Shown here piece by piece: positions 5,437 through 6,604 of a stretch of 37,247 bases of DNA (positions are counted from its first letter, which is position 1; each line of letters starts with the position of its first letter). The stretch is taken from NCBI GenBank assembly GCA_964478455.1, contig CAYZJD010000003.1:1-37247 (forward strand), in the 5' to 3' direction. This stretch comes from an uncultured Solibacteraceae bacterium. Lineage in GTDB: Bacteria > Acidobacteriota > Terriglobia > Bryobacterales > Bryobacteraceae. Position numbers and translations under genes: made by a program. A model generated the notes under the pieces. It had not been told where the DNA came from, ran no database searches, and was given only the letters and a program-made list of their open reading frames with translations.

Positions 5437-5835
5437 TTACTTGAACTGCACCACGTCCGTCAATTCCAGCAGGCTCCGCGCCATCTTGCCGGCATCCCCT
5501 TTCGGGTCGAGTTCCGTCGCTTTCTTCAGGTTCTTCCGCGCCGCTTCCTTGTCCATTTGAAACAGGCAAGCCTCGCCGAGATGCGCGTATGCGTAAGCGC
5601 TCTTCGGGTTCAACTCCAGCGCCCTCCTGTAATGCTTCACGGCCGCCGGGAAGTCCCCCTCGTGGAAGCTGACCGTTCCCAAGGCGACCTCCGCCACCTC
5701 GTTCTTCGGCAGCAGCGCCCGGACCCCGCGAAACACCTCCCGGGCCTCCTGGAACTTCTTCGCATCCCGATAGATGAACCCCGCCTCCATCAGCAGTGTC
5801 AGTTCCTCACTACTTGGCGCAACGTTCCAGCTCAT
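5437..5835 (-). CDS. Small TPR protein, T3SS chaperone-like (YscG/SctG or class II chaperone analog)
   Basis: 132 aa composed almost entirely of TPR-like repeats (FQEAREVFRGVRALLPKNEVAEVALGTVSFHEGDFPAAVKHYRRALELNPKSAYAYAHLGEA). Sits directly after the needle-like 115-aa gene. Confidence 0.65.
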   Translation of the reverse strand: MSWNVAPSSEELTLLMEAGFIYRDAKKFQEAREVFRGVRALLPKNEVAEVALGTVSFHEGDFPAAVKHYRRALELNPKSAYAYAHLGEACLFQMDKEAARKNLKKATELDPKGDAGKMARSLLELTDVVQFK

Positions 5836-5919
5836 CGTGTCAACTCCTCTTGCCGCTCCCTGGCGGCACGCCTCCGCAGCCCGGCCTTCCTTCGCGCGCG
5901 CCGGCGCGGTTACCTGCGG

Positions 5920-6267
5920 TTACCTGATGTTTCGAATCGAGGACATGGCCGCGTCGTGGCGCGCCTTCATCACGTTCGACGCCGTCTCGAATGCCCGTGT
6001 CTCCATCTGCATCTGACGCTGTAATTCCAGGAATTGCGAGCTCTCGCCCAGCAATCCGGTGGAGCCGAGCGCTCCCCCGCCGCCGATGAACTTGCCTACC
6101 ACCGAACCGAGCCCCGGAGCGAAGATGTTGGCCGCCCCTCCGGCGACCGCGCCCAGGAACCGCCGGAAACCGCTCGGTTTCTTCGCGTTATCCACGTACT
6201 TCAGGATGTCATCGATGCTGTAATTCGGAGTCTGCGCCGCTCCGAGTCCTCTTAATACCGTCGACAT
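5920..6267 (-). CDS. Gly-rich small protein with needle-protein-like C-terminal helix (SctF-like candidate)
   Basis: 115 aa. Central Gly-zipper segment (GAVAGGAANIFAPGLGSVVGKFIGGGGALGSTGLLG). The C-terminus ETASNVMKARHDAAMSSIRNIR follows the pattern of PrgI/YscF ends (..SN.V K...D....I.N.R, as I recall those sequences). Strong SD AAGGAGAGGAG upstream. Confidence 0.6.
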   Translation of the reverse strand: MSTVLRGLGAAQTPNYSIDDILKYVDNAKKPSGFRRFLGAVAGGAANIFAPGLGSVVGKFIGGGGALGSTGLLGESSQFLELQRQMQMETRAFETASNVMKARHDAAMSSIRNIR

Positions 6268-6316
6268 ATGGACTGAACTCCTCTCCTTAACCCTATTATC
6301 GAGGCCCCGTTACAAT

Positions 6317-6604
6317 TCATTGCTTCTCTTCGACCATTTTGTCGCGGAGGTCACGCAGGTGTCCGATCAGCTCGAGCAGCCGGGCATAGCCGGCCATGGC
6401 CACCTTGGCCCGCTGCTTCTCCTCGTCGGTGCCCGCCCGCTGAATCTGGTCGAGTTGCCGGCAGGTCTTTTCGATTTTCTGAAGCGCGGCCTCGACCTCG
6501 TCGAAGCTCTTCTCAAACTGCGGGAACTTCCGCCAGGCGATGTCCTCGGCGGCCGCCGGCCGCGCCCCGGCGGCGGGATTCTTCGTCACTTTCTCGCCAG
6601 CCAC
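6317..6604 (-). CDS. Small helical-hairpin protein (YscE/SctE-like co-chaperone candidate)
   Basis: 95 aa with a GTG start preceded by AAGGAGAAG. About 25 disordered residues are followed by two long predicted helices split at AGTDEE. Sits immediately upstream of the needle-like gene. Confidence 0.5.
   Translation of the reverse strand: MAGEKVTKNPAAGARPAAAEDIAWRKFPQFEKSFDEVEAALQKIEKTCRQLDQIQRAGTDEEKQRAKVAMAGYARLLELIGHLRDLRDKMVEEKQ

Follow-up and report, generated by a model that had tools for sequence, protein, structure and literature searches.

Three small adjacent genes in a Bryobacterales acidobacterium, an uncultured member of the Solibacteraceae, probably form the needle-subunit module of a T3SS (type III secretion system) that lacks a visible secretin and resembles the T3SS* of Myxococcus. 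The genes lie on the minus strand of contig CAYZJD010000003.1, at 5437-6604 of the 37,247 nucleotides that we analysed (the window), just downstream of the export gate gene sctV, and encode proteins of 95, 115 and 132 amino acids (aa). Judged by profile comparisons and by gene position, the 115-aa protein would be a highly divergent homolog of the needle subunit SctF, and we regard this F-like assignment as good. Its 132-aa neighbour, a tetratricopeptide repeat (TPR) protein, and the 95-aa protein encoded before it would then be its candidate chaperones.

The 115-aa family and its place in the gene order

The three open reading frames (ORFs) are confirmed as genuine genes, conserved far beyond chance. 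A scan of one genome per species gave 16 related loci, all in Bryobacterales, Solibacter or Terriglobia metagenome-assembled genomes (MAGs), and a Logan contig brought the set to 17. As far as the contigs reach, every one of these loci keeps the order sctV / 95-aa / 115-aa / TPR / 120-aa / FHA (forkhead-associated domain), and because this order is conserved the trio cannot be a set of chance ORFs. Across the loci the 115-aa protein keeps 54-67% identity, the TPR protein 49-72% and the 95-aa protein 33-49%, and a Shine-Dalgarno-like GGAG/GAGG motif stands 5′ of each of the three ORFs. An earlier note, made from the letters of the window, had described these ORFs, read the 132-aa product as TPR throughout and quoted the C-terminus of the 115-aa protein as ...SNVMKARHDAAMSSIRNIR. 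The ORFs are present as described, the quotation is exact, and Pfam recognises three TPR_2 stretches (E 3e-16) in what is a canonical three-repeat TPR protein. Close homologs of the 115-aa protein number 47, one of them from an Acidobacteria MAG; all are named 'hypothetical' and are without Pfam domains. On one curated MAG scaffold (L019:8191-8868) the 115-aa and TPR genes are joined as a single 226-aa ORF, through an in-frame loss that takes the final residues of the 115-aa gene and the initial ones of the TPR gene. A deletion could explain this, as could the collapse of short similar stretches during assembly, and the joined ORF is unreliable as evidence of natural fusion.

Read from its N-terminus, the 115-aa protein has a short helix, then a Gly-zipper hairpin and a Gly-rich linker, and ends in a long C-terminal helix. 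AlphaFold2 (AF2), run on a 150-sequence alignment, predicts a C-terminal helix of 42 residues with a predicted local distance difference test score above 90 over residues ~80-115; outside it the model is of low confidence and shows three short helices, at 18-26, 33-46 and 54-61, the last two around the invariant Pro51-Gly turn. Small-xxx-small motifs run unbroken through residues 42-66, and the maximum 19-residue hydropathy is 1.31, well above the 0.12-0.41 of the classical needles MxiH, PrgI and YscF and below the usual transmembrane-helix threshold of 1.6. None of these three needles has such a run, and the earlier view of the Gly-zipper as an extra segment relative to classical needle proteins is upheld. 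A Gly-zipper-like segment is found in 56 of 77 metagenomic family members, which makes it a regular feature of the F-slot protein of this clade and no oddity of the window. Classical needle subunits (~70-90 aa) are built as a helix, a P-(S/D)-(D/N)-P turn and a second helix. The window protein departs from this plan in its length and in the Gly-zipper hairpin that replaces the N-terminal helix, while the short relatives P0159 and P0117 (86-88 aa) do show the size and layout of a needle-type hairpin, with turn motifs in some members.

By exhaustive profile search the 115-aa protein belongs to a large unannotated family, comprising 1,938 clusters (50% identity) at E ≤ 1e-3, and its needle likeness was tested on the 150 best representatives. 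Four independent lines of evidence (Pfam, the PDB, a hidden Markov model (HMM) of the family and an HMM of needles) appear to tie the C-terminal helix of the family, remotely but specifically, to needle proteins. The Pfam family matched most often is PF09392 T3SS_needle_F, in 15 of the 150 members (best E 2.9e-5). Across the whole PDB, the top match of the family profile is chain F of 7Y6C (E 0.0019). This chain is EsaG, a needle protein of Edwardsiella, reduced to a C-terminal fragment and bound to its co-chaperones EscE and EsaH (PMC9426511); the nearest PDB neighbours of this fragment itself are BsaL, YscF, MxiH and PscF. For the test of the family HMM, needle and rod proteins were taken from annotated plasmid records, and 2,000 composition-matched shuffles served as controls. 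The family HMM places MxiH, PrgI and a Providencia needle above 1,999-2,000 of the 2,000 shuffles; for YscF, 34 of the 2,000 shuffles score higher, and the inner rods MxiI, PrgJ and YscI are indistinguishable from shuffles. Conversely, when 20 annotated Ysc and SPI-1 needles supply the HMM, 83 of the 150 members score at P < 0.01 (3 when shuffled) and 37 at P < 0.001 (0 when shuffled), and the alignments always run C-terminus to C-terminus. Several members also retain a (S/G)DPxx(L/F)L turn, like the PSDP/PDNP turn of needles. The needle likeness first noticed at the C-terminus of the 115-aa protein thus survives profile searches and becomes clearer at the level of the family; homology of the C-terminal helix to known needles is suggested at that level only, the signal of the window protein alone being weak (P ~0.003-0.03).

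The strongest argument for an SctF-like identity is synteny. Short members without a Gly-zipper (86-88 aa, helix-turn-helix in outline) occur in two other lineages, with G+C of 0.49 and 0.72 (L025, L027/L028), where the order is TPR / 84-91 aa / member / TPR 131-135 aa / SctI-like / SctJ / x / SctL / SctN / SctO / SctP / SctQ(FHA) / x / SctR / SctS / SctT / SctU / SctV / FHA. The clusters of L025 and L027 follow the Ysc order E-F-G-I-J-K-L-N-..., contain no secretin, and encode TPR and SctI-like proteins that can be recognised as orthologs of the window proteins. Scanning metagenomes with the C-terminal module gave 459 confirmed stretches, and the analysis used the best 80 loci. Among the 44 loci with at least 1 kb of downstream sequence, 29 have the start of sctJ 380-513 nt downstream of the member and, in between, one ORF of 115-146 aa with a C-terminus typical of SctI. 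This is the arrangement of mxiH-mxiI-mxiJ and of prgI-prgJ-prgK. Members thus hold the position of sctF in relatives, but the window gene, inside the cluster as well, adjoins sctV. One 83-aa member (P0165; L026:6885-7136) stands after ABC/FtsX and M23 peptidase genes and is followed by four unannotated ORFs; the gene corresponds to a 152-aa protein in a Pseudomonadota MAG, and no T3SS gene lies within 10 kb of the L026 copy.

The TPR protein stands in the SctG position and, by analogy, is a plausible candidate for the chaperone that would bind the 115-aa protein at its C-terminal helix. A TPR-fold gene is found directly 3′ of the needle-like gene in the 17 Bryobacterales-type loci, in L025 and in L027, where it is an ortholog (34% identity, E 5e-8). 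Apart from generic TPR models, all 17 TPR orthologs match the SycD/LcrH model (best E 2e-13), all 17 match the CdsG model over its full length (best E 2.3e-10), and 15 of the 17 match SctY over nearly full length (best E 7e-8), in each case below cut-off. The window protein itself scores 41 bits with SycD/LcrH (cut-off 104.8) and 34.7 bits with CdsG (cut-off 170), aligning residues 10-127 with 6-124 of 133.

For the 95-aa protein a homolog search returned only itself, and orthologs were therefore taken from syntenic loci; in 16 of these a homolog lies directly upstream of the 115-aa homolog. The conserved core, WRxFP...TCRQLD...RARxAMxAYGRTLxLL, has 10 invariant residues and falls into two segments, read as helical, around a Gly/Ser (SG/AG) turn. 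Searched singly against Pfam, the 16 orthologs give scattered weak matches (best E 0.017) and no T3SS co-chaperone family, and their profile finds no relative in the PDB, a designed helix-turn-helix being the best weak match. There is a faint link between the 95-aa family and its positional counterpart in L027 (5/1,000 shuffles). Its size and its place in the SctE (YscE-like) position only underlie the E-like assignment of this protein. Given that needle chaperones share structure and almost no sequence (PMC9426511), undetectable E-like similarity is unsurprising.

If the trio is a needle-subunit module, it may work as follows. The 115-aa protein would keep the long C-terminal helix that lines the channel of classical needles and would carry a hydrophobic Gly-zipper hairpin in place of the N-terminal helix. 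In the cytoplasm, by analogy with YscEFG, PscEFG, CdsEFG and EscE-EsaG-EsaH, the concave groove of the TPR protein would hold the C-terminal helix and the 95-aa protein would stabilise the TPR protein, both keeping the subunit soluble and unpolymerised. We infer that the subunit, likely an early T3SS substrate, would be exported through the SctV/SctRSTU gate and would polymerise on the SctI-like rod above SctJ, while the SctP-like protein would set length and switch substrates. An axial structure is implied by the presence in the window of genes for both the SctI-like rod, the predicted base on which the needle subunit would polymerise, and the SctP-like protein. As for the Gly-zipper, we can only speculate that it serves lateral packing or offers a hydrophobic surface by which a short filament could engage the membrane without a secretin.

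Contrary evidence and alternative explanations

A number of observations weigh against a needle-subunit module. The 115-aa protein has no Pfam match and no NCBIfam match at E ≤ 1 and reaches no curated needle model; its best single-sequence match in the PDB is the C-terminus of FlgF (E 0.3). Set alone against an SctF HMM it scores 2.7 bits, which 6 of 2,000 shuffles also reach, and the unrelated YopR and YscE fall in the same score range. Aligned with hhalign, the close family and an SctF alignment take the correct register, but at a P of 0.029. The PxxP turn of the classical helix-PxxP-helix hairpin is absent from the 115-aa protein, Foldseek on the AF2 models gave one meaningless match for the first and none for the second (no fold match), and the chaperone-contact residues V61, K62, M64 and M65 of EsaG align with R, H, A and A in the family. 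The neighbours fare no better in direct comparison: YscG scores at chance against the TPR family profile (255/1,000 shuffles), as does YscE against the 95-aa profile (499/1,000 shuffles). In the proposed yscE-yscF-yscG-like trio, then, the F-like part holds on profiles and synteny, the G-like part is plausible from the CdsG and SycD/LcrH matches (below cut-offs) although the protein is not of the YscG family by sequence, and the E-like part follows from position and size, the 95-aa protein showing no detectable similarity to YscE. It should also be considered that a TPR gene stands 3′ of the member in only 5 of 59 metagenome loci, and the E/F/G trio is therefore typical of some lineages and not of the whole clade.

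Competition for the role of main filament subunit comes from within the cluster. Two further needle-like proteins, of 223 and 155 aa, had been overlooked in the earlier note; each has its own TPR gene, and both combine an N-terminal Gly-zipper with an axial-protein-like C-terminal helix. They could be tip, translocator or even main filament proteins. The 155-aa protein matches the family HMM at 1e-7; of the partners, the 197-aa TPR protein matches SycD/LcrH and the 166-aa one is a canonical TPR protein (Pfam only). The 223-aa protein belongs to a family of 66-401 aa (223-type), of which the 155-aa protein is a distant member, with an N-terminal Gly-zipper, a (R/Q)P(L/Q)PFS motif, a variable middle that is either Gly/Ser-rich or a conserved ~100-aa domain (VGNDSQWP...), and a conserved C-terminal 60 aa. 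These last 60 residues, with the consensus GWGxIDSMMxQAExLMxSDKPSDQLKxQxLMQxAxRMFEMISKMMEQxSQMxSKAIxAIK, are laid out as helix, KPSD-like turn and helix. Most related loci carry 1-3 copies, with members in L008, L009, L011, L012, L014, L017 and L022, mostly with a 166-aa-type TPR gene 3′. The C-terminal domain has no relative in the PDB and gives nothing with hhalign against SctF, and 11 of 16 copies weakly match Flg_bbr_C, a weak likeness to the C-termini of flagellar rod and hook proteins.

One alternative, which we consider unlikely, is that the 115-aa protein is a translocator-like pore former or membrane-active effector. Its Gly-zipper would insert into an outer membrane or into that of a target (prey), the TPR protein would be a class II chaperone shielding the hydrophobic segment, and the needle-like helix would serve docking or chaperone binding only. 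The Gly-zipper is indeed of the kind found in membrane-active peptides, but its hydropathy stays under the usual transmembrane threshold (1.31 against 1.6), and members without it occupy the same slot. A small three-repeat TPR gene adjoining that of a substrate with a hydrophobic segment recalls SycD/LcrH with YopB/YopD, and SycD/LcrH is the best T3SS-specific match of the TPR protein; that match remains below cut-off, however, the substrates here are far smaller than YopB/YopD and have needle- or rod-like C-termini, and translocator families give only 1-2 stray weak matches among the 150 family members and none for the 115-aa protein. The two additional Gly-zipper proteins with TPR partners are also in keeping with pore formation, the 223-type being multi-copy with a variable middle, as expected of exposed or target-contacting proteins. 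Of the small proteins, in turn, the 115-aa one shows the highest conservation (54-67% identity), a trait of needle subunits, and in 29 of 44 loci its relatives fill the sctF-sctI-sctJ slot, which is not a normal site for translocator genes. Prey lysis by Myxococcus requires the related T3SS*, for which no effectors are known (PMC12075869), and this would suit a membrane-active protein.

It is more improbable that the C-terminal module is a general-purpose helical domain, present also in Sec-exported periplasmic proteins, with a convergent likeness to SctF and a role unrelated to the needle. The module does recur, at ~70% identity over the last 38 residues, in proteins with a Sec signal and a coiled-coil region (P0142, P0151, P0154, P0158, P0164, P0172, P0181; loci L029, L031), which are surrounded by housekeeping genes, the nearest 8-10 kb being free of T3SS genes, and it is thus not exclusive to T3SS needles, a further point against a needle-subunit module. 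T3SS core genes are seen in only 14 of the 26 metagenome loci of at least 7 kb, and the single-sequence links to SctF are all weak. A generic helix is harder to reconcile with the excess in the needle-profile test (37 of 150 members against 0 of 150 shuffles at P < 0.001), with a needle fragment as the top PDB match, and with the repeated occupation of the sctF slot by a member.

Least likely of all, and in our view highly improbable, is a YscX/YscY-like (SctX/SctY) gate accessory, an early substrate and its TPR chaperone that bind SctV for early-substrate export and supply no filament subunit: the trio adjoins sctV in the window, the 115-aa protein is close in size to YscX (~122 aa) and 15 of the 17 TPR orthologs match SctY over nearly full length (best E 7e-8), but these matches all lie below cut-off and are weaker than those to SycD and CdsG, the trio or member adjoins sctI/sctJ and not sctV in other lineages, and PDB searches with the family profiles, at E ≤ 10, brought up a needle fragment but not one YscX chain (the presence of YscX entries there being unverified).

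Known systems and the missing secretin

The earlier note saw no secretin and found a needle subunit in such a system puzzling. Neither Pfam nor NCBIfam identifies a secretin among the large ORFs of the 37-kb window, as the note had it, and tblastn with the YscC secretin domain finds nothing in the window, the 17 related loci or the 80 metagenome loci, results still compatible with a secretin gene elsewhere in the genome. This absence is the smaller part of the puzzle, as secretin-less T3SS are a described class, that of the Myxococcus T3SS* (PMC3459982, PMC10433427); the part that stays is a needle-like gene at odds with the description of this class as 'needleless'. Abby and Rocha recognised an early-branching, secretin-less 'Myxo' non-flagellar T3SS (NF-T3SS) without SctF, argued that the absence is real and that profile searches 'should have' found SctF (PMC3459982), and postulated an SctF-based periplasmic or envelope-crossing structure in the secretin-less ancestor of all injectisomes. 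The Myxococcus T3SS* works with a Tad pilus and has been modelled as a needleless platform that passes cargo to it (PMC12075869).

We liken the window system to this Myxo/T3SS* class by gene inventory. The T3SS* of Myxococcus xanthus (mxan_2434-2464) shares SctD, J, I, Q, RSTUV, N and L, several LcrH-like TPR chaperones and the lack of a secretin (PMC10433427, PMC3459982), and the three TPR proteins of the window cluster (132, 166 and 197 aa) recall the LcrH-like genes of T3SS* (PMC10433427). FliO in L001 and L025 and the LysM protein in the window are likewise shared with the non-flagellar T3SS of Myxococcota, for which FliO and LysM features, including LysM-bearing FliO proteins, have been reported (PMC12403147). 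The class differs in being described without an SctF homolog, whereas a divergent SctF-like gene with chaperone-like neighbours is found here, and in that the host phylum here is Acidobacteriota. A literature search of limited coverage found no published description of an acidobacterial non-flagellar T3SS or of the 115-aa family. At one related locus (L001:12070-14266) a Tad-type gene (PF13400 Tad) and two TadE pseudopilin genes follow the module-end FHA gene, recalling the T3SS*-Kil Tad coupling of Myxococcus; tblastn at E ≤ 1e-4 recovers matches to these Tad genes neither from the window nor from any of the other loci.

Among injectisomes with characterised needle chaperones, the order of a small helical, a needle-like and a TPR-type protein is that of YscE-F-G in Yersinia and PscE-F-G in Pseudomonas, and the trio of L025 and L027/L028 has I-J-x-L-N-O-P-Q-R-S-T-U behind it, an order shared with the ysc operons. 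Unlike in Ysc/Psc, the 95-aa protein has no similarity to YscE, nor the TPR protein to YscG, the TPR protein here is canonical with three repeats, the F-like protein has 115 aa with a hydrophobic insertion, and the trio adjoins sctV instead of lying between sctD and sctI. Chlamydial CdsE-CdsF-CdsG likewise come from three adjacent small genes in a cluster with an FHA-domain SctD-type gene, and the match between the TPR protein and the CdsG model is full-length. Elsewhere in the window, the SctI-like protein weakly matches the CT668 family and the best model of SctL is of the PRK06328 type. Scores, however, are far below cut-offs, the F-like protein has a Gly-zipper and no NCBIfam match at E ≤ 1, and no secretin was found here. 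With EscE-EsaG-EsaH of Edwardsiella piscicida (7Y6C) the likeness is that of the EsaG C-terminal fragment, the best PDB match of the family profile; the chaperone-contact residues of EsaG are not conserved here, and EsaH is a partial TPR protein of 88 aa. The Edwardsiella system is an SPI-2-type injectisome of a pathogen and has a secretin.

What is new here is a cryptic SctF-like family with chaperone-like partners in a secretin-less T3SS. Remote homology and gene position indicate that at least one large clade of secretin-less T3SS encodes an SctF-like protein missed by standard profiles, its gene adjoining chaperone-like genes in a cluster with inner-rod and ruler-like genes. It is possible, though we hold it doubtful, that the 'needleless' secretin-less T3SS (acidobacterial, possibly also the Myxococcus T3SS*) do build an axial structure, from a cryptic and unannotated SctF family in which a Gly-zipper replaces the outer helix. 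Such a structure would be the one that Abby and Rocha postulated for the ancestor, and through its Gly-zipper surface the filament might make contact, without a secretin, with a membrane or with another machine, e.g., a Tad pilus. Should these proteins form filaments, models of envelope crossing by these systems would need revision, the 'needle first, secretin later' scenario would gain a living example, and ~1,900 clusters of 'hypothetical proteins' would receive a function.

The surrounding cluster

Family scans place a single T3SS cluster on the minus strand of the window, whose G+C is 62-70%, running from ~23.4 kb down to 2.1 kb. It begins with genes for a FliA-like sigma factor, a 182-aa SctI-like protein, SctJ, SctL, SctN, an SctO-like and an SctP-like protein, continues with an FHA-SctQ fusion, SctR, SctT, a LysM protein and SctU, and then has those for a 197-aa TPR protein, the 223-aa protein, a 166-aa TPR protein and the 155-aa protein, followed by SctV. 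After sctV come the 95-aa, 115-aa and 132-aa TPR genes, then those for a conserved 120-aa protein, a 197-aa FHA and transmembrane protein, and three DUF4384 paralogs. Coordinates and supporting matches are collected in Table 1.

Table 1. Features of the trio and of the T3SS cluster around it, in window coordinates
Feature	Position	Strand	Basis or remark
95-aa ORF	6317..6604 (6604..6317, GTG start)	-	
115-aa ORF	5920..6267	-	
132-aa TPR ORF	5437..5835	-	
C-terminal helix of 115-aa protein, residues 73-114, needle-like module QFLELQRQMQMETRAFETASNVMKARHDAAMSSIRNI	5926..6051	-	AF2, EsaG fragment alignment
Gly-zipper hydrophobic segment of 115-aa protein, residues ~33-66, around invariant Pro51-Gly turn	6070..6171	-	P51, G54 invariant
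sctV, export gate, directly upstream of trio	6747..8912	-	TIGR01399 hrcV, 781 bits vs cut-off 692
182-aa SctI-like inner rod protein, directly upstream of sctJ	21979..22527	-	PF17001 32.1 bits vs cut-off 32.4; PF09392 2.6e-4
237-aa SctP/FliK-like protein, candidate length ruler and substrate switch	17622..18335	-	TIGR02514 5.6e-5, below cut-off
120-aa conserved protein, 3′ of TPR gene, position of YscH/YopR in Yersinia	5059..5421	-	13 loci, 26-36% identity
197-aa protein, FHA domain and one C-terminal transmembrane helix	4532..5125	-	FHA 1.6e-13, Yop-YscD_cpl 1.9e-6
TPR 197 aa + 223-aa protein	11378..10785 + 10696..10025	-	between sctU and sctV
TPR 166 aa + 155-aa protein	10006..9506 + 9417..8950	-	between sctU and sctV

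Positional counterparts of the SctP-like protein in L025 and L027 match PF02120 Flg_hook. The 120-aa protein has no family match in the Pfam and NCBIfam scans. The 197-aa FHA protein, which is kept at the module end in related loci, resembles SctD cut down to its cytoplasmic part, the periplasmic ring domains being absent. Three paralogous DUF4384 proteins (2108-4489, minus strand) follow it, at least one with a signal-peptide-like start. An SctD-like protein without its ring-building part, together with these paralogs, would be in keeping with a basal body that stops short of a secretin. A degenerate flagellar system was considered for the cluster and rejected: SctV, SctJ and SctR reach non-flagellar cut-offs, SctI and SctL are present, and rod, hook, FliG and Mot genes were not seen in the Pfam and NCBIfam scans. 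Scans for sigma-28-type promoters and for terminators around the trio stayed at chance level.

Other features of the cluster touch on its lineage and perhaps its control. The FHA domain is fused to the N-terminus of SctQ in the window (16124-17689, minus strand) and in L025 and L028, and this fusion may be a marker of the T3SS clade. The LysM protein (280 aa; 12780-13622, minus strand) is encoded between sctT and sctU and is also found in L014. At the upstream edge (22636-26019, minus strand) lie the genes for the FliA/WhiG-type sigma factor and for an 841-aa Ser/Thr kinase whose C-terminal domain is EgtB/GldK-like (formylglycine-generating-enzyme-type); these two and the FHA domains are possible regulators. 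In the flank outside the T3SS cluster, a HepT-like ribonuclease domain, the toxin of a HepT/MntA-type toxin-antitoxin pair, is encoded at 29910-30734 on the minus strand.

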